A stretch of 64,000 nt of DNA from Candidatus Jorgensenbacteria bacterium (GTDB lineage: Bacteria; Patescibacteriota; Minisyncoccia; UBA6257; GWB1-50-10). The notes below the pieces were generated by a model. It did no database searches. It saw only the letters and a program-made list of their open reading frames with translations, and had not been told where the DNA came from. The stretch lies in NCBI GenBank assembly GCA_030648515.1, contig JAUSHK010000005.1, positions 162,895-226,894 of the forward strand, read 5' to 3'. Below, one piece after another: positions 7,567 to 46,648 of this stretch. Position 1 is the first letter of the stretch; each line of letters begins with the position of its first letter. The translations under genes were made by a program, and so were the position numbers.

Positions 7567-9921
7567 TTAACTCTTAAGCCTCTGATATGCTTCCGCTTCA
7601 ACATCTTCGCGCGGGCGGCCATATGCCATACGAGACATTTCGCGCGCGGCTTCCGCCGCTTTCGCGACTCCCTTGGGCGGAAACGGTACGAACATGGTGA
7701 ATGGGGCGGTAACCTCGTTTGCAATGATTAATTTTACATGGGCGTTCAAATTATCGATGTTCACTAAGTTGTGCTCGTCAAAAACCGGCGCAAATTGCTG
7801 TTTCAAAAATTCCGCGTCCTGCGCTCCAACCCGAAAAGCAACGATGGAGCCAACGTTTCCAAAAATAGCGTTCCGGATGTTCTCTTTGAGTTGGGCAATG
7901 AATTGGTGCGCGACCGTGAGGCATAGACGATATTTCCGAGCTTCGGAGAGAATTGTTGAAATACTCGGCGTTGTAAAACTCTGAAACTCGTCAATGTAGA
8001 GGTAAAAATCTTTACGGGATTCCATTGGAATATCCGTGCGCGAAAACGCCGCGAGCGTGAGCTTGCCGACAATAATCATTCCAAGAAGCCCCGCGTTCAG
8101 CTCGCCAATCTTGCCTTTTGAAAGGTTCACGAGAAGGATTTTCTGCTCGTCCATAATTTTCCGAAAGTTAATCGTGCTCTTTGATTGCGAGATGACTGGA
8201 CGGACATAGTCGTTGCCGATAAACGTGTTGAACTTTGAAGTAATGTACGGAACTAGATTTGCAAGCGAAGCTTCTCCTCCGGCTTTCTCCGCCTCTTTTT
8301 CCCAAAAATCTTTTGCAATAGGATTTTTGCATTTTTCAAGTAATCGTTTCCGGAACACCGAATCAGCGAGCACGCGCGGGACATCAAGAATCGTGAATCC
8401 GTCCGAGGGGTCGTCCATAAGCAGAAGAAGCGTGAAGCGAAGGTATTGTTCAAAAATCGGGCCGCCGGTTGTTTTTAAATCGTAGAGCGTGTCAAAGATG
8501 TTCAGCATTTCATTCACAATAAACGTCTTGTGCTCCGGAAACGCGGGGTCGTATTCAAGCATATTGAGTCCGATGGGACGCGCAAGATCTGACGGGTCAA
8601 AAATAATAACGTCCTTTGCGCGGTGTTCGGGAACGCGAGCAAGAACGTCTTCAAAAAGATCTCCATTAGGATCAATCACGCAAACCCCCTCGCCATTTTC
8701 AATATCCTGCCCTGAGAGATTATTTAAAAACACGGATTTTCCGGTGCCGGTCTGACCGATTGCATATAAGTGACGCCGCCTGTCTTCGTGAAGCATCCGC
8801 ACCTTGTGCGCCTGATTGCGAAACCTGTTTTCCCCAAGAACGACGCCTTCTTCTGGCAAATTCGGCGGCGGGGGCACTTCTCTGAACTTCAGATGTTTAA
8901 TTTTTGGAATTGAAGTGAACGGCGTCGGAAAATGAAATATGCTCGCAAGCTCCTCGCTATTTAATGTCATCGCGTCAGCGGCGTTAAATTCGCGAAACGA
9001 GTATTGTCGCACGATATCGCGGGTCTTTTTTGCTTCAACAACTTTAAGCTCGTTCCGTTCCGGCGCACTGAACTGCGAAAATCCTGCAGCGAGTCCTTCA
9101 AGAATGAGGTGCGCCTGATATTCGCTTGGCGCGGATGCAAGCACGCGCACATTCACTTCAAAGAACGGCTTTATAAGCTTTGCTTCAAGTGCTTTTACAA
9201 TCGCTTCTTCAACAATCGGCGGCTCTTTTCTTTCTTCTTTTTTCTCGGGGCTTATCGTCTTTGAAATTTCGTCAAATGTTTTTAATACCGATGATTTTGT
9301 AATTTCTTTAAACTTTTTTCCTTTCCGCATTTCACTTAAGATGCGTCGTACTTCTTTTACAGAAGACGCTTTGGCTGGCCGCGCAATTATTTGAAGCGCT
9401 CCGCCTTCGCCAACTTCGCTTATTTTTGAAAAGCCTCCAAGCATCGGGAGAAAGGTATCGGAATTTGCCTCATTATAGGTGCGAAGCGGGATGCCGAAGA
9501 AATTTTTTTGAACCACCTTAGCAGCGGCAACAGCTCCGGAGTAATTGAAAATATTATAATCTTCGGACGGGCGGACATCCGCCTCTTCCCATAATGCCTG
9601 GATTTGCCGCACAAATGCATCGCTTATTCCTTCCTCAATTGCCGCATAAAAATGAATTTCTTCGCCGACATACGGAACCGCAACCTCAAACGTAAACGGC
9701 TTCCGAAAAGCAGAGAGCGCTCCGAGAAGCTGTTCTGAGCGGGCGATTTCCTGCTTTAATTCTTTTCCTTCTGTTTTTTCCCTCGGAAGCCTGATTAAAA
9801 ACAACTTCAACCCAAGCTGTTCAAAAAGCCGCTTTTTAAACGCGCGGCGGGAGATAAAATACACAACAATGCCGACAAGGACCGCTGAAAAAATTACAAG
9901 GAAGATAAAAAGGAGTGGCAT
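7567..9921 (-). CDS. membrane-anchored FtsK/HerA/VirB4-superfamily ATPase (DUF87/TraD-like)
   Basis: 784-aa protein with an N-terminal TM helix, Walker A (IGQTGTGKS) and a Walker B region (ILLVNLSKGK...CLTVAHQF). It sits next to the pilus genes. Confidence 0.65.
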   Translation of the reverse strand: MPLLFIFLVIFSAVLVGIVVYFISRRAFKKRLFEQLGLKLFLIRLPREKTEGKELKQEIARSEQLLGALSAFRKPFTFEVAVPYVGEEIHFYAAIEEGISDAFVRQIQALWEEADVRPSEDYNIFNYSGAVAAAKVVQKNFFGIPLRTYNEANSDTFLPMLGGFSKISEVGEGGALQIIARPAKASSVKEVRRILSEMRKGKKFKEITKSSVLKTFDEISKTISPEKKEERKEPPIVEEAIVKALEAKLIKPFFEVNVRVLASAPSEYQAHLILEGLAAGFSQFSAPERNELKVVEAKKTRDIVRQYSFREFNAADAMTLNSEELASIFHFPTPFTSIPKIKHLKFREVPPPPNLPEEGVVLGENRFRNQAHKVRMLHEDRRRHLYAIGQTGTGKSVFLNNLSGQDIENGEGVCVIDPNGDLFEDVLARVPEHRAKDVIIFDPSDLARPIGLNMLEYDPAFPEHKTFIVNEMLNIFDTLYDLKTTGGPIFEQYLRFTLLLLMDDPSDGFTILDVPRVLADSVFRKRLLEKCKNPIAKDFWEKEAEKAGGEASLANLVPYITSKFNTFIGNDYVRPVISQSKSTINFRKIMDEQKILLVNLSKGKIGELNAGLLGMIIVGKLTLAAFSRTDIPMESRKDFYLYIDEFQSFTTPSISTILSEARKYRLCLTVAHQFIAQLKENIRNAIFGNVGSIVAFRVGAQDAEFLKQQFAPVFDEHNLVNIDNLNAHVKLIIANEVTAPFTMFVPFPPKGVAKAAEAAREMSRMAYGRPREDVEAEAYQRLKS

Positions 9922-9926
9922 AGGGC

Positions 9927-10340
9927 TTACTTCATCATTCCCCTTTTCTTTAATTCGGGAATAATGTGGTCAATGAGAGCGTCGTGAAACGCATCAAGAA
10001 CGAACGCTGGCCGTTTCACCGCCTCGGACTCCGCCTCAATGATTCCTTTCTGAAACGCGACTGAGATGAGGTGATTTACTTCTTCTTGCGCGGCAACATC
10101 TGATTTTTTTGCCGCCAGGTATGAGGGAAGATTCCCTGTTCCTACCGGGACATTATTTTGAGTCCCCTCCTCTTGCGGACGCGACACCGACTCAACCGCC
10201 CGTCTTATAATTTCCCGTTCCTCTAGACCGCGCGCTTCTGGATTTTCTTTTTGCCGTTCAACTTCGGCCCCTATTTCTCCAAGATGCTTTTCAAACGCTT
10301 CGTTAAAATTTATTTCAGCCATGGAATTATTATAGAACAA
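9927..10340 (-). CDS. hypothetical protein
   Basis: 137-aa acidic ORF, co-directional and tightly packed between the ATPase and the pilin-like gene. No recognisable domain. Confidence 0.4.
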   Translation of the reverse strand: MFYNNSMAEINFNEAFEKHLGEIGAEVERQKENPEARGLEEREIIRRAVESVSRPQEEGTQNNVPVGTGNLPSYLAAKKSDVAAQEEVNHLISVAFQKGIIEAESEAVKRPAFVLDAFHDALIDHIIPELKKRGMMK

Positions 10341-10445: not shown

Positions 10446-11753
10446 TTAGATTCCCCACAAACGAAACGAGCCGGAACTGCTTGTAGCATTTACATTGGAC
10501 GAGCTTGAGTAGTACTTGCTTGAGCCGGTGTAGAAACCGCTCGCATCAAGTCCGCTGGACCAATCCGTTTGCTGAAACGTCGCGTTTTTCCAGCGGGTTA
10601 CGAAACTCGCTAGCGCCGCTTGAAGCGTTGACGCTCCGTTATTCCATTCCACAGTTGCAGTTACTTTTTGTGTTGATGGATCATCGCTTGATCCGCCGGC
10701 GCACGGCGATACGCCGCTTATCGTACTTGATGAATCTGCTGTCCTGCACACATTTTCTACAGAAAACCACCGCGTGAAAATCCTATTGTTATAAAGGCGT
10801 TTTACATCATCTGCCGAGAAAGCGAGGTTATAGATACGGACGTCGTCAATGTAGCCGTTCCAATAAAAACCACTACTATGCCTGCCGATGTAGAGAGTGT
10901 CACTGTTACTTAACGAGCCGCTCTTTGCTGCTATGGTATTTATTAAATCCCCATCTACATACAACGCGGTGCCATTTGTCCTGTCGGCAGAAATGGCAAT
11001 GTTGTACCATATTCCAGTGCTTATTGCGCTACTTGTTGCGAGCGATGAATTCCCACTGCTTACTTCATATCCACCTTGAAATACGTTTGATGGACTAATG
11101 CATAATTGGTAGTTCGGGTATGCAGCCGCATTTTTTGTGATTATACAGTGGTATGCGCCGTCCAAGGCATTTGTATTTACCCATGCCGTTATTGTGAAAT
11201 CCCCGGTTGTGATGTTATTAGTGTTTTCCGCAGTTACATAGGCGTCTACGCCGTTAAAACTCAGACAGTTGCCGATCTTACACGTTGATGATGCCCGCGT
11301 TGGACTGTTCGTGAGAGTCCCATTATTGTTATTTCCCGTCGCGTCATACGTTGTTGTACTCGTTGAGGTGACATCCTCGTCAAATTTCCATTCGCCGACA
11401 AGCCCGTTTGTAACATCATTATCTAAAATGCCTTCTTTCCCCTGAACAACGAAAAGCCTAGAACTTGACGCATTCAAGTAATACTGCGTACTCGTTCCCT
11501 TTGTGAGTCCATATAAGTTTTGCCAACTCTCTCCGCTCCATGCGTTTACTTTATCAATAAGTTCCTGCCCTATGGTTGAAGCGGACTGATTCCGTTCAAT
11601 GCCGACGTTCGAACGCAAAACACTCGAAATCGCTATCGTCGCCCCGCCGATAATAATCGCTCCGACTGACAAACCAATAAGCACTTCAACGAGGGACTGG
11701 CCGACTCGATTAGTTAGTAGTGAGTAGTGAGTAGTGAGTAGTTTTTTAGACAT
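10446..11753 (-). CDS. type IV pilin-like (pseudopilin) protein with C-terminal LamG/concanavalin-like domain
   Basis: The leader MSKKLLTTHYSLLTNRVG is followed by a prepilin cleavage/methylation motif G|QSLVEVLIGL (Glu at +5). The C-terminal LamG-like region reads WNGYIDDVRIYNLAFSADDVKRLYNN. The ORF is open further upstream to 11810 (MSRRDIV...). Confidence 0.7.
   Translation of the reverse strand: MSKKLLTTHYSLLTNRVGQSLVEVLIGLSVGAIIIGGATIAISSVLRSNVGIERNQSASTIGQELIDKVNAWSGESWQNLYGLTKGTSTQYYLNASSSRLFVVQGKEGILDNDVTNGLVGEWKFDEDVTSTSTTTYDATGNNNNGTLTNSPTRASSTCKIGNCLSFNGVDAYVTAENTNNITTGDFTITAWVNTNALDGAYHCIITKNAAAYPNYQLCISPSNVFQGGYEVSSGNSSLATSSAISTGIWYNIAISADRTNGTALYVDGDLINTIAAKSGSLSNSDTLYIGRHSSGFYWNGYIDDVRIYNLAFSADDVKRLYNNRIFTRWFSVENVCRTADSSSTISGVSPCAGGSSDDPSTQKVTATVEWNNGASTLQAALASFVTRWKNATFQQTDWSSGLDASGFYTGSSKYYSSSSNVNATSSSGSFRLWGI
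11712..11743. repeat. 32-nt heptamer-array repeat R, copy 1 (AGTTAGT + 3x AGTGAGT)
   Basis: agttagtagtgagtagtgagtagtgagtagtt matches the copies at 44333 and 46161 at 31 of 32 positions. On the coding strand it is CTACTCA x3.5 and encodes LLTTHYSLLT. Confidence 0.9.
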
Positions 11754-11791
11754 ATGTAAATACGATAAGATTATTTTATCAGTTCTATCTA

Positions 11792-11829
11792 CTATGTCCC
11801 TTCTGGACATCTCCCATAGGGAGACAAAC
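11792..11829. repeat. double-hairpin element H, copy 1 (ctatGTCCCttctGGACatCTCCCataGGGAGacaaac)
   Basis: Two adjacent 4-5 bp hairpins. The second copy, in reverse-complement orientation, is at 44518..44555 (34 of 38 identical). The GGGAG-ATG-TCC core encodes MSRRDIV on the minus strand. Confidence 0.85.
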
Positions 11830-11848
11830 TACCAACTACAAACTTCAC
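11824..11848. repeat. inverted heptamer-array repeat R-prime, copy 1 (acaaactaccaactacaaacttcac)
   Basis: Shares the 17-mer actaccaactacaaact with 46618..46648. Its reverse complement is built of the same AGTNNGT heptamer units as R (AGTTTGT AGTTGGT AGTTTGT). Confidence 0.8.
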
Positions 11849-13020
11849 TTTAGGTCATTATACATGCTCAACACCTCCGCTGCGGTGAGCGCGCGTTTAT
11901 AGATGCGGACCTCGTCAATTGAACCACTGAAATAATCCGTTGATTGCGCCCCTATTGCCGTATACCCGCCAACAGTTTCAGTGTTTGCCTGCGCTAATGT
12001 ATTTGCGCTAAGCGTTTCTTCTGTTCCATCAAGATACAATTTTGGCGTTGTCGCATTTACCCCTATCACAGCGCAAATGTTATGCCAACTTGTATCAATC
12101 GCGGATGTTGATTTAGCATCGCCGTGCCCGGTATGACTGTACCAAAAATTGCCATCTGAAGTTACGGTAAAAATATATCCGTTTGCGGTATTGTCTATTC
12201 CTCCATAATTAATTCTTGTAGAAACTATTCCGCCACCCACGCCGGTGTTTCTTTTTACCCACGCACATATCGTTTTTGCATCGTTTGCGCCTGCGCCTGA
12301 ATTAGTTAGAGCGCTTACATAACTACTTACGCCGTCAAAACTCAGACACCCTCCAGCTTTGCAGCTTGAACCGGAAGCCCAGGTCGGACTATTTGTTGCC
12401 GTGCCATTATTACCCTGTCCTGAAGCGTCATATGTTGTTGTCGCCGTTCCTTCATCAAAATGCCAGTATCCTACCATTCCAGATTCAAAGCGCGTCGTAA
12501 CGCTGCCGCGCGTATTTACAATCACATCTCCCATAAACGCATCAGCGGCGCCGGTTACAATTGATACAATTTTTTTTGATGAAAGCGCGCCTGTTCGCGC
12601 CGCGAACGCTAGGTCAAGCGTACTTGAGGTGTACGGGTTTGAAAATCTTACATTGCGGGTTGAAAGCGCATATGTATTTGTGGTAGTTCCAGCACTAAAG
12701 CTTGTTCCTTGAAACACGTCGTAGATTTGCGAAGAAGTCGTATTGATAAAGTGGACTCCCCACGCGAGCCCGCTCTCCTGGGCTATTGAACGATTTTTTG
12801 CATCGTTTATCGCCGCGGAAAGTTCGCGAAGCGTGAGTTTTATGTTTTGGCTTCCTCCAAATCGCCCCATTACAGCCACGCCAGCAACTGTGAGTATCAC
12901 CATAAGCCCAATCACAATTAAGAGTTCAATGAGGGTGAAACCACCGCACGCCTTGAAGCGCGTTGGTATTAAGTATCTAGTATCATGTATCATGTATTTT
13001 TTCTGCGTATTTTTTTCCAT
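11845..13020 (-). CDS. type IV pilin-like protein with C-terminal LamG domain
   Basis: Classical G|FTLIELLIVIGLM prepilin motif after the leader MEKNTQKKYMIHDTRYLIPTRFKACGG. LamG-like C-terminus reads SGSIDEVRIYKRALTAAEVLSMYNDLK. Confidence 0.75.
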   Translation of the reverse strand: MEKNTQKKYMIHDTRYLIPTRFKACGGFTLIELLIVIGLMVILTVAGVAVMGRFGGSQNIKLTLRELSAAINDAKNRSIAQESGLAWGVHFINTTSSQIYDVFQGTSFSAGTTTNTYALSTRNVRFSNPYTSSTLDLAFAARTGALSSKKIVSIVTGAADAFMGDVIVNTRGSVTTRFESGMVGYWHFDEGTATTTYDASGQGNNGTATNSPTWASGSSCKAGGCLSFDGVSSYVSALTNSGAGANDAKTICAWVKRNTGVGGGIVSTRINYGGIDNTANGYIFTVTSDGNFWYSHTGHGDAKSTSAIDTSWHNICAVIGVNATTPKLYLDGTEETLSANTLAQANTETVGGYTAIGAQSTDYFSGSIDEVRIYKRALTAAEVLSMYNDLK

Positions 13021-13053
13021 ACTTAATACTTTATACTTGCTACCTGATACTTT
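12980..13053. repeat. heptamer tandem arrays at the 5' end of the pilin-like gene: (GTATCAT)x2.5 inside the leader codons and (ATACTTN)x3+1 just upstream
   Basis: gtatcatgtatcatgtat lies at 12980-12997 (coding strand ATACATGATACATGATAC, each unit carrying an ATG). atacttaatactttatacttg...atacttt lies at 13019-13053. Confidence 0.8.
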
Positions 13054-13054
13054 C

Positions 13055-14257
13055 TTAGAACTGCGTCGTGAGTTGGTAAATCGGGATGATAATTGCGAGC
13101 GCTATTACGCCGATTACTACACCAATAAAAAGCAACAACACTGGCTCTAAGAATGAAACGAGTGATTTTACAGAGCCATCAATCTCTTTCATGTAGAAAT
13201 CAGCAAGCGTAGAGAGCACTTCTTCAAGATGCCCGGCGCGTTCGGAGATTGCCACAAGGTTTGTCACCGCCTGCGGAAAATACGGCTCACGTTTAAACGC
13301 CTCACCGATAGTGAGCCCCTTTGCGAGGCCTTCCCGCGAGATGCGCATGAGCGCGATTTTCAAATCAACATTTCCAACGGCGTTTGCAGTGATTTCAATG
13401 GCTTCTGTTATCGGCATACCGGCGCGGATTAAGGAAGAGAGAACCGACGCAAACCGCTGAACGGCGATTTTCCGAACAATATCCCGAATTACCGGAATCT
13501 CATCCACTACGCTCGTTATGAACCTCTTAAACGCCATCGATGATTTGTAGAGATAGGTAATGAAACCAATCACAACAGCGAGCGTCCCGAATATGAGAAT
13601 GCTGTGGTCGCTTAAGAAAAGACCCGCTGTAAAAACAATTTTTGAAAAAAGCGGCGGTTCAAATCCTCCCTGCAAAAATACATTCGCAATTTTAGGCAGT
13701 GCGAACATAACCAAAAAAACAAGAATGGTGACCGACCCCACGAAGAGCAGTGCCGGGTAAATGAGCGCGCCCTTAATCTGGTCGTGCAGTTCTTTCTGCC
13801 GCGTGAGCATGCCCGTGAGATTATCAAAAACATTCTCAAGATTTCCAGAGGCCTCGCCCGCGCGAATCAGATTCGTGTATACCTGGCTGAACACTTTTGG
13901 GTGGCGCGCGAATGTCGTGTAAAACGGATTGCCTTGTTCAAGCGAAGAGCGTATCTCAAGTAAAATATTTTTAACGGCCGGCTTATTAAAATCCGCGATT
14001 AAAATATTTACCGCCTCCATAAGCCCGGTCCCAATCTTTAACATGAGTGTCATATACTTTGAAAGGAAAATCTGGTCTGTGATAGTCACCGTCCCGCTAA
14101 AAATAGAGCGCCGCATTGCGCTTTCCGTCGGCCGCACAGAAACCGGCCGTAGGCCATTTTTCGAAAGAAGCAGAAGAACTTCATTTACATCTTTAGCGTT
14201 AACCTCGTTCTCAATGATTCTTCCGTCCTCCTGCGAAGCAACGTATCTAAATTTCAT
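13055..14257 (-). CDS. pilC: type II secretion/type IV pilus platform protein (GspF/PilC family)
   Basis: 400 aa, polytopic, with duplicated GspF-type domains. Adjacent to the PilB ATPase. Confidence 0.85.
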   Translation of the reverse strand: MKFRYVASQEDGRIIENEVNAKDVNEVLLLLSKNGLRPVSVRPTESAMRRSIFSGTVTITDQIFLSKYMTLMLKIGTGLMEAVNILIADFNKPAVKNILLEIRSSLEQGNPFYTTFARHPKVFSQVYTNLIRAGEASGNLENVFDNLTGMLTRQKELHDQIKGALIYPALLFVGSVTILVFLVMFALPKIANVFLQGGFEPPLFSKIVFTAGLFLSDHSILIFGTLAVVIGFITYLYKSSMAFKRFITSVVDEIPVIRDIVRKIAVQRFASVLSSLIRAGMPITEAIEITANAVGNVDLKIALMRISREGLAKGLTIGEAFKREPYFPQAVTNLVAISERAGHLEEVLSTLADFYMKEIDGSVKSLVSFLEPVLLLFIGVVIGVIALAIIIPIYQLTTQF

Positions 14258-14323
14258 AGTAATTGGTAATTGGCTTTTATGTTATTTTCTCAAATTTAAT
14301 ATCTAATTACTAGCTGTTAACCG

Positions 14324-17168: not shown

Positions 17169-17333
17169 AGTGTGACTATATCGCAAAACTTTTATTTGCA
17201 CAACACCAACGGATTCCGATTTAGAGATTAAAGATTTTTTTAGTTATCCCAGCGGGCCGAGACATAAAGGCTCATCGGCTAACACCTTAATTTTAAACTA
17301 TACAATTTTAAAAACTGTATAACGACGAATATA

Positions 17334-18826
<1,493 letters not shown>

Positions 18827-33087: not shown

Positions 33088-33375
33088 CTATATGGCCACG
33101 CGGCGTATTATTCTTTCTTGTGTAGGCGTAAGCCTAACGCGCTCTCCAACTCCTCCAATTCCATGCGGAAGTTCGCGTTTGGATTTCCGTCCTTTCCACT
33201 TTCCTTGACGCCCATTTGTTAAAACTTCCTTTTTAGGGATGGTTTTAAGTACCTCCCGAAGCGTTCCAGGCTGTCCGCAACGTGGGCACTTACCCCTTAG
33301 CGCCTCGCCAAGTTTATAATTGGCTTCTCGTTCTACTACTTCTCCACAATTTGTACACTTTGCCTTATGAGCCAT
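33088..33375 (-). CDS. small zinc-ribbon protein (hypothetical)
   Basis: 95 aa with CTNCG...CPRCG and a basic C-terminus. Confidence 0.45.
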   Translation of the reverse strand: MAHKAKCTNCGEVVEREANYKLGEALRGKCPRCGQPGTLREVLKTIPKKEVLTNGRQGKWKGRKSKRELPHGIGGVGERVRLTPTQERIIRRVAI

Positions 33376-41618: not shown

Positions 41619-41797
41619 AGAATTAACTTATAACTAATAATGTATAACCTATGACCCATGACGATTGCTGTTATTTGTTATTGGTTATTTGTTATACGTT
41701 GCTTTTATTTTTGACCTTTCATTGACGGCCGACGACCTATGACATCCAATGGCCGTAATTAGTTCCTTGTCGTTTGTCATTAGTTATTAGTCATTTG
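41619..41797. repeat. AT-rich intergenic region with several short direct and inverted repeats (candidate promoter/regulator-binding region)
   Basis: ttatttgttat x2, three ATGAC-centred copies (cctatgac, ccatgacg, cctatgacat), and ttgtcattagtta/ttagtcatttgtcac. Confidence 0.45.
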
Positions 41798-44227
41798 TCA
41801 CCTGAATATTACATCACTTCCGAAAATCACGTTACTTCCGAGCGAGATTTCCTGCGATTCGCCCGTTGTGAATGACGTATATGAACCATAACTTGTTCCT
41901 CCGGAATTTGTGGCAAAGGCACGAACATAATACGTTACGCCCGCGGAAAGTTCCGATACTAACAAACTATATTCCCCCGTTCCGTATGACCCGCTTTCGC
42001 TAACTGTCCATGTGTCGTCTTGCGTAAGGCCATATTTGAAACCGCGAGCCGTTGCATTTGCTCCGCCGGTAGCTGTAATATTCCCATTTAATGTTGAGCT
42101 CGATACCCCAATGTTTGTTATACCGCTTGTTGTTATTGTCGGTGCGACTGCTGGAGTTGCAAACGAAACATACGAACCATACGCCGTACCTTGAGCGTTC
42201 GTAGCAAAAGAACGCACATAATAAGTTGTTCCAGGCGAAAGTCCGGTCAAAGAACCCGTGTACGCGCCGGTATCGTAAGTTCCGCTTTCGCTCACTGTCC
42301 ACGTGTCGGTCTCAGTCAAGCCGTATTTGAAACCACGAGTAGTCGGCGACGAACCTCCTATATCCGTTATGTTTCCATTCGCAGTTGCCGTTGTTGAGCT
42401 TACGCTTGATGCCGCTTGCGTTGTCACTACCGGAGATGCTGTAATAGTCGCAAAAGAGACATAGGAGCCATAACCAAAACTAGTAATAGAATATTGGTAA
42501 ACTTTCCCCTGACCAATATCAAGAAGGTACATACTGGTTCCGTCTGGCTTGAAATATGAACTTGTAAGCGTTACAGAAGGACTGTTTGCAAAACTTACAC
42601 TGTCGTAACTCGCAGTTGAAACATCCCATGGAGTAGATAGGGTATATTGATATGAGTTCGCCACGCCATATCCGGCGCTGAACATTTTAGTTCCGTCCGA
42701 ATTAAAGAATACAGCGTCTGAACGGCTTAACTGGCTCCCGACAGAAAAGGACTTACTATCATAACTTGCTGTAGAAACATCCCACGGGGTTGATAAGGAA
42801 TATTGGGTGACAATTTTCGTATCATAAGGGCTTACATACATCTTAGTTCCGTCTGATTTAAAATAAGCGTTAATTGGGGATCCTGAAGCCGTGCTCATAA
42901 ATTTAGTATCATAGGTTGCGCTTGTCACGTCCCAGGCGGAACTTAATGAATATTGGAATACTTTTTGTGCACCGTAATCAGTCACGTACATTTTAGTTCC
43001 GTCACCTTTAAAGAATACTCCAGCTGTAAAATAAGATTGGCCTGCCACGCTATAACTTGAATTATAACTTGCCGTAGAAACATCCCACGGGGTTGATAAT
43101 GTATATTGGCCAACTATATGATAAGTAGCGTCGTATGAAGTAATATACATACTGGTTCCATCTGGCTTGAAAGAAACACCAAACTTGTTATCTTTAGCAT
43201 TCGTTATAGCGTAGTTCACGCTGTCATAACTTGCCGTTGATAGGCTCCAAGGCGTCCCTTTCATAGCAAACGCACGGGAATAGTAAGTAGTACCAGGTGA
43301 AAGCCCGGTTAACGAACCCGTGAACGCCCCCGTTCCAAATGAACCATCTTCGCTTATACTCCACGTGTCTGTTTCCGTGAGGCCGTACTTGAAACCGCGA
43401 GTTGTGGCGTTGGCTCCATTGGTAGCAGTGATGTTGCCGTTCCCAGTCGCAGTTGTCGATCCAACACTGGATGCCGCTTGTGTGGTGACTGTCGGCGCGA
43501 TTGCAAGTGGATAAGCCAAACCATTTCCAGAATTATATAAAGTTGTTACTTCAGTAGAAGTTAAAGCCCTACTCCACACTCCTATTTCATCCATATCTCC
43601 TGAATAAAACCATGCAGTTTCGTCGTAACTTGCTCCAAAAGTAACATCTGCTCCAATATCTATTGAACCAAGCCCTGTTAATTGTGTGCTTTGTATTCCA
43701 TCTAAATAAATATACGCTGTTGCTCCTGAATAAGATAAAACTACATGGTGCCAGGCGTTATCGGTTGGAGTTGCTAAATTACTTTCTTTTACTGTTGCGT
43801 TGTCCAAAAACCCAAGAGTGTTTGCTGCTCTGTTTAAATGAAACATAAATCTTGGCGAATAACTATCAAGTAAAGATCTATATGTTCCGCCCGCTGTTTT
43901 TATCCACATTGAAATTGAATAGGCAGTTCCCAACGATGACAATCCGTTCACTGAAATATAATCATTCCCGCTAAGCGTATACGCCGTCCCTATTTTTCCG
44001 GTAGTGCCGTATGTCATTGTGGCACTGACTGTCCCAGTATTTGCTCCGGCGCTATCCGCCGCGTTTCCGCTTGCTTCGTCAAATTTGTAATAAGAAACCA
44101 AACTATCGGTTAAAGCGGCTGCCTTCGTTGTAAAAATGCCTGCTCCGAAATATGTAAGAATGAGCGCGACGACTGCGAGGACGCTGGTTATTTCGTGCGC
44201 AAGTTTTTTTATTTTAGTTTTATTCAT
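41798..44227 (-). CDS. giant membrane-anchored surface protein with LamG domain, YxLSTPWDVSTASYD repeats and Ig/FN3-like repeats
   Basis: TM anchor, then a LamG region (LVSYYKFDEASGNAADSAG...YIYLDGIQ). Then at least 6 copies of the Q(Y)xLSTPWDVSTASYDS repeat and 3 copies of the TTQAASSVxSTTATxNGNIT...RGFKYGLT repeat. Confidence 0.6.
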   Translation of the reverse strand: MNKTKIKKLAHEITSVLAVVALILTYFGAGIFTTKAAALTDSLVSYYKFDEASGNAADSAGANTGTVSATMTYGTTGKIGTAYTLSGNDYISVNGLSSLGTAYSISMWIKTAGGTYRSLLDSYSPRFMFHLNRAANTLGFLDNATVKESNLATPTDNAWHHVVLSYSGATAYIYLDGIQSTQLTGLGSIDIGADVTFGASYDETAWFYSGDMDEIGVWSRALTSTEVTTLYNSGNGLAYPLAIAPTVTTQAASSVGSTTATGNGNITATNGANATTRGFKYGLTETDTWSISEDGSFGTGAFTGSLTGLSPGTTYYSRAFAMKGTPWSLSTASYDSVNYAITNAKDNKFGVSFKPDGTSMYITSYDATYHIVGQYTLSTPWDVSTASYNSSYSVAGQSYFTAGVFFKGDGTKMYVTDYGAQKVFQYSLSSAWDVTSATYDTKFMSTASGSPINAYFKSDGTKMYVSPYDTKIVTQYSLSTPWDVSTASYDSKSFSVGSQLSRSDAVFFNSDGTKMFSAGYGVANSYQYTLSTPWDVSTASYDSVSFANSPSVTLTSSYFKPDGTSMYLLDIGQGKVYQYSITSFGYGSYVSFATITASPVVTTQAASSVSSTTATANGNITDIGGSSPTTRGFKYGLTETDTWTVSESGTYDTGAYTGSLTGLSPGTTYYVRSFATNAQGTAYGSYVSFATPAVAPTITTSGITNIGVSSSTLNGNITATGGANATARGFKYGLTQDDTWTVSESGSYGTGEYSLLVSELSAGVTYYVRAFATNSGGTSYGSYTSFTTGESQEISLGSNVIFGSDVIFR

Positions 44228-44230
44228 GTT

Positions 44231-46240
44231 TTATTTAATAATAAAGCTTGCTTTTTCATTTTGATCTTTCGCTAATGTGGGCCAATTTTTCCAATCAAAT
44301 CGCTTTCCGACGAGGCGGAAGGAGATGGGAATAGTTTGTAGTGAGTAGTGAGTAGTGAGTAGTTGAGCGGAGAAGATGACTTTGTTGCCGGAGATTGCGT
44401 ATGAAACTGGGGCTGATACTCCGATTGGGGTGGCAAAAACATCAACATTGTCAGCGGAAAAATCCACGGCGTTTTTCCAGACCCACAGGTCCGAGCCCAC
44501 CTCGACTTTAGAAAAGTCGATGACGTGCTCGTAGGAGTTTGTCTCCCTACGGGAGATGTCCCGTAGGGACATAGTTGGGACAAGAGTCGCGCGACCGATA
44601 AATTCTTCACGGACGCCTCCGGCGATTGCCGACGCGTATGTTGAATATTTTTTCCCATCAATTTCATAGAGCGGATCGATAGTCGCCGCAGTGATTTTAT
44701 TTACTCCTACAAGATTATTGTTATTCATATTCAAATTTGTGATCGCCGCGCCGCCGAATGAAAGATTGCCGTTCAGCGACGATGTTCCGGTGACGAGAAA
44801 TGTTCCTTCAACAGAGAGCGTGTTTGTCGGAGTTGTCGTTGCGATGCCGACTGCTCCGGAAGTCGTGAGCGAGTATGGCATCTGCCCCGCATCGGGATCA
44901 AAATAATACGAGGAATCCGCAACGTCGTAATAAACGCCGGCCGAGAGATTGCCGTGGATGATGGCACTTTTTACGAACGATCCTGCCGGGCCGACTTCCA
45001 AGTATTCCGTCGGGGATGTGGTTGCGATACCAACTTTCCATGCCGTGCTTGATGCGTATATCGTGCTTCCGTTGAGCAACCAGAGTCCGGCGCTACCACC
45101 CGAGATAGCAGAGTCAACATAACTTTTCGTTGTGGCATCACTATCGCCTACTGGCGTCCCCACGACTACTGGCTGGGAAAAATACGAAGTGCCATTTACT
45201 TCAAATTTGTATGACGGGGAAGTAGTCGCTATACCGACGTTTCCGCCGTTTGGATTTAATAACAATGGTATTTCTGTCGCGAGATTACTTGAGTCATAAC
45301 CCTGTAGCCATGCCCCATATGGGGATGAAAGAGCTACGCCCATATCTAGAGCACCATTTGTGTTTCCGCTCCAAATACGAAATAACCCATTAGTAGTTGT
45401 TCCGGATGTTGCGGGTCCCACTGCAGCACCTGCAATAATTAATTTTGCATTTGGAAAATTTAATCCACCCCAAGTGTTGACTCCAATAGATGCGCTGCCA
45501 ATAACATCTAATTTATTTACCGGAGTACTGGTACCAATTCCAACATTTCCTGCTGTCGTCGCAAGCGTTGTTGTGCCGGTTATGTTTGTTGTACCAAGCG
45601 TGTAAAATGTCGCCGGCAAATTGCTTGTTGTTGAAGTACCAACAGCTAGACCGAGCGGAAACGCGTAATTTGCAGTTGTAAATGGACCGCCTAAAACATT
45701 CGCGGCGTCAATACTTGAAAGATACGCGCCCGTCCCGCGAAACGCGCCGTTTACTGTGCGTATGTCGCCCCCAACAATTAGCCGTTCATCAACGCCTGTT
45801 GAGGTCGCTTTAATGCCGATTCCAATACTGCCAAACTTATTAATGTCCATAACGACAAATCCTGGTAGGTTATCTGGCGCCCCTGATTCTCGATAAAGCT
45901 GGAGATTGCCAAAATTGCGGGCCGACCAAATATATGAATGGCCCGAGGTAAGGTTCTTTACGCCGACTCCAGGACTTGTTGTTGAAGCTACTATAAACAC
46001 GTACCCGTGCGACGACGAGCCGCTTTCCGTTGAGGTGGTGTTAAAAGTACTAACTGGGGAAGGCGCCGTTGTTCCAAAACCGATATTTAAATTTGAATCA
46101 ACACTAAACAGTCCCCCGCCGGTGCCCGCGGATTGGGTAGGACCGATGAAGGCACGGACAGTTTGTAGTGAGTAGTGAGTAGTGAGTAGTTCGAAAACGA
46201 GAATTACTACTACAAAGAAAGTTCTAGGGAAGTTTTTCAT
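44231..46240 (-). CDS. tail-fibre-repeat surface protein (contains the R repeat at both ends and the H element)
   Basis: Hydrophobic N-terminus, multiple VGIATTSPxxxLEV-type repeats, and a long Gly/Thr/Ser-rich beta-helix-like body. R copies lie at 46161-46192 (codons 17-27) and 44333-44364 (near the C-terminus). H lies at 44518-44555, antisense. Confidence 0.5.
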   Translation of the reverse strand: MKNFPRTFFVVVILVFELLTTHYSLQTVRAFIGPTQSAGTGGGLFSVDSNLNIGFGTTAPSPVSTFNTTSTESGSSSHGYVFIVASTTSPGVGVKNLTSGHSYIWSARNFGNLQLYRESGAPDNLPGFVVMDINKFGSIGIGIKATSTGVDERLIVGGDIRTVNGAFRGTGAYLSSIDAANVLGGPFTTANYAFPLGLAVGTSTTSNLPATFYTLGTTNITGTTTLATTAGNVGIGTSTPVNKLDVIGSASIGVNTWGGLNFPNAKLIIAGAAVGPATSGTTTNGLFRIWSGNTNGALDMGVALSSPYGAWLQGYDSSNLATEIPLLLNPNGGNVGIATTSPSYKFEVNGTSYFSQPVVVGTPVGDSDATTKSYVDSAISGGSAGLWLLNGSTIYASSTAWKVGIATTSPTEYLEVGPAGSFVKSAIIHGNLSAGVYYDVADSSYYFDPDAGQMPYSLTTSGAVGIATTTPTNTLSVEGTFLVTGTSSLNGNLSFGGAAITNLNMNNNNLVGVNKITAATIDPLYEIDGKKYSTYASAIAGGVREEFIGRATLVPTMSLRDISRRETNSYEHVIDFSKVEVGSDLWVWKNAVDFSADNVDVFATPIGVSAPVSYAISGNKVIFSAQLLTTHYSLQTIPISFRLVGKRFDWKNWPTLAKDQNEKASFIIK
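44333..44364. repeat. 32-nt heptamer-array repeat R, copy 2
   Basis: agtttgtagtgagtagtgagtagtgagtagtt is identical to 46161-46192. Confidence 0.9.
44518..44555. repeat. double-hairpin element H, copy 2 (inverted relative to copy 1)
   Basis: gtttgtCTCCCtacGGGAGatGTCCCgtaGGGACatag is the reverse complement of the 11792-11829 architecture. The plus-strand ATG at 44536 opens a 37-codon ORF MSRRDIVGTRV... Confidence 0.85.
46161..46192. repeat. 32-nt heptamer-array repeat R, copy 3
   Basis: Identical to 44333-44364. Lies just inside the 5' end of ORF 44231..46240 and 45 nt downstream of the avd-like gene's stop. Confidence 0.9.
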
Positions 46241-46614
46241 AGACTGTTTACTAATTTATTCAACATTTTCATCACTTCACTTAATAGTTTTTGAGATTCG
46301 CCACAAAATTCGGTATTGTTGCAAAAATTTAGTTGTCTTGCAATTTCAATTTGAGTTTCTAGCTCAGCGCCGGACCCATAAGCGTTTAGTAAAAAATGTC
46401 GAAAATCTTTTCGTGAACTTCTTCTGCTTCCTTCGGCGATGTTTGAAGGTATTGAAACTACGGCTCGCTTCATCTGTATCCCAAGCGCGTATGTTTCCGT
46501 TTGTGGAAATTGATTAACTAATTTGTAAATTGATTTCACTAATTCCATGGATTTATTCCAAACTATTAAATCTTTGTATGAGCTTATTTTATCTGTTGAG
46601 TTTTGTTGTTCCAT
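46237..46614 (-). CDS. four-helix-bundle protein (23S rRNA intervening-sequence protein / Avd-like, TIGR02436 family)
   Basis: YKDLIVWNKSMELVKSIYKLVNQFPQTETYALGIQMKRAVVSIPSNIAEGSRRSSRKDFRHFLLNAYGSGAELETQIEIARQL is the canonical pattern of this family. Confidence 0.8.
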   Translation of the reverse strand: MEQQNSTDKISSYKDLIVWNKSMELVKSIYKLVNQFPQTETYALGIQMKRAVVSIPSNIAEGSRRSSRKDFRHFLLNAYGSGAELETQIEIARQLNFCNNTEFCGESQKLLSEVMKMLNKLVNSL

Positions 46615-46617
46615 TTT

Positions 46618-46648
46618 CTACTCACTACCAACTACAAACTACTCACTG
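46618..46648. repeat. inverted heptamer-array repeat R-prime, copy 2
   Basis: ctactcactaccaactacaaactactcactg lies 4 nt upstream of the avd-like start codon. It is inverted relative to R at 46161-46192. Confidence 0.8.

Follow-up and report, generated by a model that had tools for sequence, protein, structure and literature searches.

Inverted heptamer arrays at a pilC-pilin junction in Patescibacteria: a predicted hairpin that is probably an empty member of an intervening sequence-like cassette family

We analyzed a 64,000-nt stretch of the genome of Candidatus Jorgensenbacteria bacterium (Patescibacteriota; GenBank assembly GCA_030648515.1, contig JAUSHK010000005.1, positions 162,895 to 226,894), hereafter called the window, in which a minor-pilin-like gene begins within two tandem arrays of 7-nt units. 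A preliminary description of this site had reported both arrays, two ATG triplets in different frames at a distance of 7 nt and the two homopolymer runs (A7 and A6), all of which are present on the minus strand (sequence and Tandem Repeats Finder, TRF). It had overlooked that the two arrays are reverse complements. Together they are predicted to form an 87-nt hairpin, which extends from the stop codon of the upstream pilC-like gene to the last few leader codons of the pilin and has the start codon at its top. This element is probably a member, lacking an open reading frame (ORF), of a family of palindromic cassettes resembling the intervening sequences (IVSs) of 23S rRNA, and would supply the pilin gene with its start codon and leader. 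The parts of the junction, in the order in which they would be transcribed, are as follows.

13055..14257, minus strand: pilC-like gene (T2SSF; ORF list and Pfam T2SSF, E=8e-50)
13018..13052, minus strand: 5' arm with five heptamers, AAGTATC AGGTAGC AAGTATA AAGTATT AAGTATG (sequence, TRF, motif statistics and inverted-repeat pairs)
12998..13017, minus strand: A-rich apical loop, GAAAAAAATACGCAGAAAAA (sequence; an A-rich center is also found in the aligned GTAT-family junctions)
12966..12997, minus strand: 3' arm with five ATACNNN units, ATACATG ATACATG ATACTAG ATACTTA ATAC (sequence, inverted-repeat pairs and fold)
12940..12965, minus strand: rest of the leader, codons PTRFKACGG, up to the predicted prepilin cleavage site G/FTLIELL (translation, N_methyl and ortholog alignment)
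11845..13020, minus strand: LamG-domain minor-pilin-like gene, 391 aa (Pfam N_methyl and Laminin_G_3)

On the coding strand, the 118 nt from stop codon to cleavage site read TAA GA, the 5' arm, GAAAAAAATACGCAGAAAAA, the 3' arm and CAACGCGCTTCAAGGCGTGCGGTGGT, after which the mature part begins with TTC ACC CTC ATT GAA. The pilC-like stop (TAA, 13057-13055) lies 2 nt ahead of the 5' arm, and the last unit of this arm (AAGTATG) holds the first in-frame ATG (13020-13018). The loop contains the A7 run (13016-13010) and most of the A6 run (13002-12997), and would be translated as EKNTQKK if ATG 13020 is used. Of the two ATGs in the 3' arm, the one at 12993-12991 is in frame and the one at 12986-12984 is out of frame. 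The N_methyl motif of the encoded protein occupies residues 23-46 (Pfam), and 192 homologues were found, for the most part in Patescibacteria.

Several measures support the pairing of the two arrays. The GTATNNN units on the two strands converge on a center near 13008; the arms at 12971-12998 and 13025-13052 (28 nt) are 79% complementary, and a perfect 11-nt inverted pair joins 12966-12976 with 13019-13029. The predicted RNA fold consists of helices of 4-7 bp separated by small bubbles each 7 nt, with a free energy (dG) of -19.4 kcal/mol and a z score of -3.3 relative to dinucleotide shuffles, and the fold of the entire junction reaches a z score of -5.0. The pattern GTATNNNGTATNNNGTAT has six matches in the window, every one of them at this site, where 0.11 would be expected. 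Both arrays are picked up by TRF, their longest perfect tracts being 18 nt (2.6 units) and 20 nt at 92% (2.9 units), with the other units degenerate. Neither an intrinsic terminator nor a sigma-70 promoter was detected at 12966-13053, and the pilC-pilin junction element has no Rfam match at E<=1.

In-frame starts of the pilin-like gene are found only within the element, namely ATG 13020 at the boundary between 5' arm and loop and ATG 12993 in the 3' arm, which is located at the loop edge in the predicted fold. Since the element contains every in-frame start, its loop and 3' arm must be translated, giving the leader MEKNTQKKYMIHDTRYLIPTRFKACGG. The conservation of a GTATG start in GTAT-family relatives (see below) favors ATG 13020 as the real start, and the N_methyl motif together with the cleavage site implies that the translated leader is removed by prepilin peptidase. 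The stem is predicted to pair the first ~30 coding nt with the sequence just 3' of the pilC stop, so translational coupling of pilC and pilin would be the likeliest consequence.

The recurrence of 7-nt repeats where pilin-like genes of this cluster begin, which had been noted before, holds for both LamG-pilin starts; a restriction of such arrays to pilins is not supported. The window contains nine segments with a lag-7 identity of 16/21 or more, compared with 0.1 in dinucleotide shuffles, and no enrichment was seen at other periods. They are located at the pilB-pilC junction (that is, at the pilC start), at both LamG-pilin starts, at the junction between a LamG-FN3 gene and a cupredoxin-like gene, on both flanks of a PF05635 gene and at a solitary site (44333-44363). 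At least six unrelated heptamers are involved, rather than a single heptamer reused in a single orientation. Besides the element described above, the junctions concerned are the following.

11712..11844, minus strand: element at the next pilin-like gene (pilin 2), with the same architecture (fold and motif search)
14258..14323, minus strand: pilB-pilC junction, with (CCAATTA)x2.1 immediately ahead of the pilC ATG and a partial inverted partner, AGTAATTAG (TRF; lag-7 identity 0.54)
41619..41800, minus strand: junction of the LamG-FN3 and cupredoxin-like genes, with CTAATGA-type and ATAACAA-type arrays (TRF and lag-7 identity)
46160..46647, minus strand: ORF-carrying relative (Pfam and motif search)

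At pilin 2, the 5' arm AGTTTGTAGTTGGTAGTTTG (11844-11825) stands directly 3' of a TGA stop, the 83-nt loop comprises a double mini-hairpin (11824-11795) and ATGs at 11810 and 11753, and the 3' arm is (CTACTCA)n (11741-11712); the predicted fold of this junction has a dG of -45.5 and a z score of -4.1. In the ORF-carrying relative, the arms AGTGAGTAGTTTGTAGTTGGTAGTGAGTAG (46647-46618) and ACTACTCACTACTCACTACTCACTACAAACT (46190-46160) enclose a loop that holds a PF05635 four-helix-bundle gene ('23S rRNA intervening sequence protein', 46237-46614). The ATAACAA-type array has an inverted GTTAT partner just ahead of ATG 41618. Arrays of the CTAC type occur five times at three loci of the window.

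The loop module of the CTACTCA element, TCTCCCTAYGGGAGATGTCC...GGGACA, recurs in L016 (one of the related loci compared below), with octamer arms, and at 44536-44578 of the window, which makes two copies in the window. The latter is a reverse-oriented copy of the double mini-hairpin of pilin 2 (AGTTTGTCTCCCTACGGGAGATGTCCCGTAGGGACATAGT, plus strand), and it lies inside the ORF 44231..46240 (minus strand), in the C-terminal coding part of a 669-aa protein without a Pfam domain. About 170 nt from it is the solitary 31-nt array 44333-44363, which is identical to 46160-46190, so that these two arrays are direct repeats bracketing nearly the whole of this ORF.

The same kind of array is abundant in related genomes. 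In related Patescibacteria loci (547 kb), which belong to the candidate phyla radiation (CPR), we found 47 period-7 and 12 period-8 arrays, compared with one period-7 array in loci of other phyla (284 kb). An inverted partner lies within 700 nt of 26 of the 47 CPR period-7 arrays and of none in shuffled controls, and 40 of the 47 are intergenic or lie no further than 150 nt into an ORF, where 23% would be expected. We extracted 24 orthologous pilC-pilin junctions, each from stop codon to cleavage site. Period-7 arrays were detected in 12 of them and period-8 arrays in three or four; of the rest, two form long hairpins whose sequence is unique, five are unstructured and short (29-60 nt), and one has a weak hairpin only. 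Junctions with arrays fold at z scores of about -2 to -6, mostly -3 to -6, and the short junctions do not. Arm sequences vary by genome (AAGTAT/ATACTT, AGTTTGT/CTACTCA, TATGAAT/ATTCATA, GTTTTAG/CTAAAAA and TTTTCAA/TTGAAAA), and within every array junction both arms stay complementary despite these differences. Translation of period-7 arms explains why the leaders of homologues have a 7-residue period, examples being MSKKLLTTNYSLLT, QLQPTTYNLQP, KYLILNTKYLL and LKTINYKLKT. Hairpins comparable to the one at 12966-13052 are found in the same slot of orthologous operons, with other arm sequences, and eight of the 24 junctions have no arrays.

The junction evidently turns over far faster than the surrounding genes, since the corresponding junction of the closest relative found (L086; PilC 80% and pilin 52% identical) is unrelated, being 172 nt long with different arrays and TTG as the start codon; the flanking genes align, and the junction itself is unalignable. 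GTAT-type relatives of the element are located at pilin junctions of two other genomes (twice in L003 and once in L008). Across these three genomes, the GTAT/ATAC cores are invariant and the 3-nt spacers variable, and a terminal GTATG start is followed by an A-rich loop. Another element family, AGTTTGTAGTNGGTAGT ... ATG-TCx-AAAAAA-CTACTCA, is shared by pilin 2 of the window and pilin 1 of L002, and in L120 synteny breaks exactly where the 3' array ends. The shared CTACTCA family, the recurrent loop module and the L120 break indicate that whole modules are exchanged.

A link to IVSs comes from the ORFs that the loops can carry. The same pilC-pilin slot holds a PF05635 ORF between inverted arrays in five loci (L004, L006, L014, L015 and L110) and a PDDEXK_3 ORF between inverted repeats in two (L111 and L112). 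Such ORFs are thus found in orthologous slots as well as at 46237-46614 of the window, and are absent from the copy at 12966-13052. Gene callers fuse IVS ORFs to the pilin (proteins P0029, P0044, P0039 and P0053), and in some cases stop and start codons overlap at the end of the IVS ORF (TAAATG or ATGA), as at 46237-46240 of the window. Beyond the pilus operon and the CPR, PF05635 genes with inverted heptamer flanks were identified in a Nitrospirae kinase operon (L113), downstream of a Mg-chelatase-like gene (L116-121) and in L122, often with the same GTAG/CTAC cores; the gene at 46160-46647 of the window likewise lies outside the pilus operon. PF05635 ORFs are 60-70% identical across phyla, compared with ~40% for the host pilins, and have more than 3,898 homologues at E<1e-10.

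Some further observations concern these ORFs. In four loci (L004 735-2207, L110 2501-3973, L111 2501-4012 and L112 89-1660), the PF05635 or PDDEXK_3 ORF runs in frame and without a stop across the 3' array into the LamG pilin, which has no ATG of its own. From their sequences, such pilins would have to be made as fusions whose N-terminal part of ~125-170 residues is cut off at the prepilin site, or not be made. In L072 (3160-3730), a PF05635-like gene lies between direct duplications of ~35 nt (TTCAAAAATCAAAAATCAAAATG...TGTAAAAT), with the inverted partner TTTTGATTTTTGA further downstream, an arrangement to be expected if the gene had been inserted into a heptamer hairpin already present there and the target had been duplicated. 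Avd-like four-helix-bundle genes were also encountered beside a reverse-transcriptase-like ORF and stretches rich in Asn codons (AAC) that end the preceding gene (L080 3160-3950 and L061 12850-13260); these are probably diversity-generating retroelements of other Patescibacteria, unrelated to the heptamer cassettes.

Taken as an IVS-like cassette, the element would work as follows. Cassettes of this kind would be acquired, lost and swapped where cistrons adjoin in Patescibacteria, and one would be tolerated at the pilin because the leader can be dispensed with and an ATG comes with the cassette. Translation of the pilin would then probably respond to opening of the stem, for instance by ribosomes that reach the end of pilC, or to cleavage specific for double strands. 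The period of 7 nt would most likely reflect replication slippage that lengthens both arms, rather than a frame-switching device. That the 5' arm abuts the pilC stop was considered as a sign of target choice and rejected, since the ancestral spacer is only ~8-15 nt and any insert would abut the stop.

Several points weigh against this interpretation. Among the loci compared, we found no empty-site/filled-site pair between near-identical genomes, no target-site duplication and no mobility enzyme. The GTAT-type element has no second copy in the 64-kb window, and the mobility of its family is deduced from other genomes only. Roughly half of the heptamer arrays in CPR loci stand alone. RNase III excision from the transcript is the defining processing step of IVSs, and the stems described here, being AU-rich with a mismatch bubble every 7 nt, are a poor classical RNase III substrate. 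Template switching between the quasi-palindromic arms could maintain their complementarity without any function. Sense and antisense fold energies are equal, with no G.U strand bias, so neither selection on RNA rather than DNA, nor any selection, is demonstrated. An origin at the DNA level, by slippage and quasi-palindrome template switching and with no RNA role, is possible.

Of the other explanations, a control hairpin evolved by the host at this intercistronic site deserves the most attention, although we regard it as unlikely. Its arms would have grown in place by slippage around the original start codon, the benefit being coupling of the pilC stop to the pilin start, display of the start in an A-rich loop or an RNA processing site, and IVS ORFs would be secondary invaders, for which the direct duplication in L072, resembling insertion of PF05635 into an existing hairpin, speaks. 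The start codon is indeed at or near the loop in most junctions, all operon junctions in L086 and in the window have such a structure, and most genes have no Shine-Dalgarno (SD) motif while the assembled 16S rRNA lacks CCUCC, so that structure could dominate initiation. However, five orthologous pilC-pilin junctions work with 29-60 unstructured nt, turnover is complete among close relatives, the folds show no G.U strand bias, and one element family appears at different junctions in different genomes. The absence of strand bias would suit a neutral by-product, in which polymerase slippage generates 7-nt units preferentially where DNA is under no constraint, as in spacers and cleavable leaders, and quasi-palindrome template switching preserves the likeness of the arms, with neither function nor mobility. 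Among long simple sequence repeats (SSRs), those with 7-nt units are the most frequent class in many prokaryotes (Mrazek et al. 2007, as cited in PMC4679880), and the arrays do lie where constraint is lowest. We nevertheless consider a neutral origin improbable, because specific multi-unit sequences and loop modules are common to several loci and genomes, the arrays are tightly associated with conserved cargo ORFs in several phyla, and the L120 synteny break falls precisely at the array end.

The preliminary description had favored repeat-mediated phase variation of a pilus tip or adhesin-type pilin, or else a repeat-binding regulator, and neither fits the data well. A slipped-strand contingency locus, in which gain or loss of a 7-nt unit (or a change in an A-run) shifts the frame and switches the pilin on or off, would agree with tandem units across the start region, with ATGs 7 nt apart in different frames, with the heptamer SSRs of Haemophilus influenzae high-molecular-weight (HMW) adhesins (PMC12721329, PMC8262952) and with the in silico result that loss of one ATACATG unit leaves no in-frame ATG. 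Yet we consider it improbable: the tracts are not long and perfect (2.6-2.9 units, the rest degenerate), and after in silico unit gain, 5'-arm changes or A-run changes (A7+/-1) ATG 12993 is still in frame. Array lengths also appear to be constant. The one other assembly, the sole other contig from an exact-protein look-up, is identical at the locus; arrays flanking identical PF05635 genes keep their copy number in six and three independent assemblies despite flank divergence of up to 0.9%; and L004 and L110 differ by substitutions with the unit number constant at four. A flank-anchored variable-gap search of metagenome contigs for variants of the locus yielded no match. Moreover, the arrays are paired as inverted repeats and are present at non-adhesin genes too. 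A regulator would have to recognize the site as a dyad-symmetric operator, binding GTAT cores 7 bp apart on both arms and controlling transcription of the minor pilin genes. The perfectly symmetric convergence of GTATNNN units on the center, the invariant GTAT/ATAC cores with variable 3-nt spacers across three genomes and the receiver-domain gene at the head of the operon would suit such an operator, but the receiver protein has no DNA-binding domain, the element is intra-operonic, 2 nt past a stop and without a promoter-like site, and a 7-bp spacing would place successive sites on different helix faces. Since adjacent junctions of the operon also use unrelated heptamers, a sequence-specific repeat-binding regulator is very improbable.

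Comparison with known systems helps to place the element. As in the IVSs of 23S rRNA, inverted flanks form an extended stem around a loop (z scores of -3.3 to -5.0 here) in a transcribed region, the host gene product is not destroyed, and the loop is either empty or occupied by a PF05635 four-helix-bundle ORF (the TIGR02436 'IVS protein'). In contrast to those IVSs, the element is located in an mRNA cistron junction and leader coding region, not in an rRNA helix, its arms are made of 7-8-nt tandem units, and the copy at 12966-13052 has no ORF. A second point of reference is provided by the TAACTGA direct repeats, which end at start codons in Beggiatoaceae, Cyanobacteria and Bacteroidetes (MacGregor 2015, PMC4679880), and by the cyanobacterial short tandemly repeated repetitive (STRR) sequences; over-representation of heptanucleotide SSRs in prokaryotes is itself cited in PMC4679880. 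Like these, the arrays comprise 2-6 tandem heptamers, are overwhelmingly intergenic and end a few nt from a start codon (the 5' arm ends in ATG); genes mostly without SD motifs and strain differences in 7-nt steps are traits of the TAACTGA/STRR systems. However, those systems rely on one heptamer throughout the genome, always in forward orientation apart from one reported inverted case, whereas many heptamers are used here, half of the arrays are inverted pairs that form hairpins, and the arrays extend into coding regions and can carry ORFs.

Repetitive extragenic palindromes (REPs), bacterial interspersed mosaic elements (BIMEs) and elements like miniature inverted-repeat transposable elements (MITEs) are also short, multi-copy palindromes at gene junctions, and an arm and loop module is likewise common to several loci here. 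Unlike them, the heptamer elements have no single conserved consensus within the genome, and no RAYT or transposase was seen in the window; unlike REPs, which lie downstream of genes, they are usually at gene starts and partly translated. The H. influenzae hmw1A/hmw2A genes (PMC8262952, PMC12721329) offer another parallel, in that 7-nt tandem repeats upstream of an adhesin gene lie beside a structured 5' region linked to RNase III; HMW phase variation by heptamer SSRs acts through an RNase III-targeted 5' untranslated region (PMC12721329). The HMW tracts, however, are long, perfect and demonstrably length-polymorphic, while those described here have 2.6-5 degenerate units and show no polymorphism in the assemblies compared. 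In the searchable literature we found no description of inverted pairing of heptamer arrays into hairpins, of many different heptamers, of an arm translated as leader or of PF05635/PDDEXK_3 cargo, nor of heptamer hairpins in CPR or repeats flanking PF05635 genes. Inverted pairing, heptamer diversity, the translated arm and cargo ORFs therefore appear to be new relative to known heptamer repeats; the stronger claim would be that of a mobile mRNA 'intervening sequence'.

We advance that claim only tentatively. Heptamer arms may mark a class, not described before, of mobile intervening-sequence cassettes of mRNAs as well as of rRNA, that is, palindromic elements with short-period arms, empty or with PF05635/PDDEXK_3 ORFs, which land at cistron junctions, donate a start and a disposable leader, and are shared across phyla. 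If so, the empty pilin hairpin would be the minimal form of a mobile cassette, and the 30-year-old puzzle of the 23S IVS ORFs would turn into a question about a selfish hairpin element. The finding itself connects two poorly understood things, namely the heptanucleotide excess near start codons in some bacteria and the great abundance of PF05635/PDDEXK_3 'IVS' genes (more than 3,800 close homologues), and offers a concrete architecture for both. It also affects how gene starts in Patescibacteria are to be read: apparent long 7-residue-periodic leaders of pilins and other surface proteins are translated hairpin arms, and the fusions of IVS-protein ORFs and pilins that gene callers sometimes make arise for the same reason. 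For the pilus, it points away from a phase-variable adhesin and toward post-transcriptional coupling of pilC and the minor pilins.

The 3' end of the 16S rRNA was also inspected with regard to translation starts. The 16S rRNA gene (17328-18826) is the sole rRNA gene in the window, and its 3' end (17202-17345, minus strand) reads ...GTGGATCA/TGTATATTCGTCGTTATACAGTTTTT. GGATCA is not followed by the canonical CCTCC anti-SD sequence, and the ~125 nt that lead to the start of the adjacent gene (17201) contain none either; the anti-SD sequence is replaced by a small palindrome of the GTAT/ATAC type (TGTATA...TATACA). SD motifs are absent from most genes and strong in a few (AAGGAG or AGGAGG at 33375, 36061, 58396 and 61379). 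The sequence AUACAUGAU, present twice in the 3' arm (12982-12997, minus strand), has perfect 9-nt complementarity to the assembled 16S tail AUCAUGUAU (~17332-17340). Heptamers as SD substitutes pairing with the 16S tail were rejected as a general mechanism, since the upstream regions of 58 genes match no better than background and the heptamers of other junctions are unrelated. The match may be due to chance or to shared GTAT-type palindromes.

With respect to the surrounding operon, it is headed by the receiver-domain gene, and the order pilB-pilC-LamG pilin 1-LamG pilin 2-small ORF-TraG-like ATPase is conserved. The two LamG pilins are followed on the minus strand by the small ORF (9927-10340), which has no match in Pfam or NCBIfam searches, and by the TraG/VirD4-like coupling ATPase (7567-9921). 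That their position is kept in L002 and L003 suggests that both are part of the pilus system.

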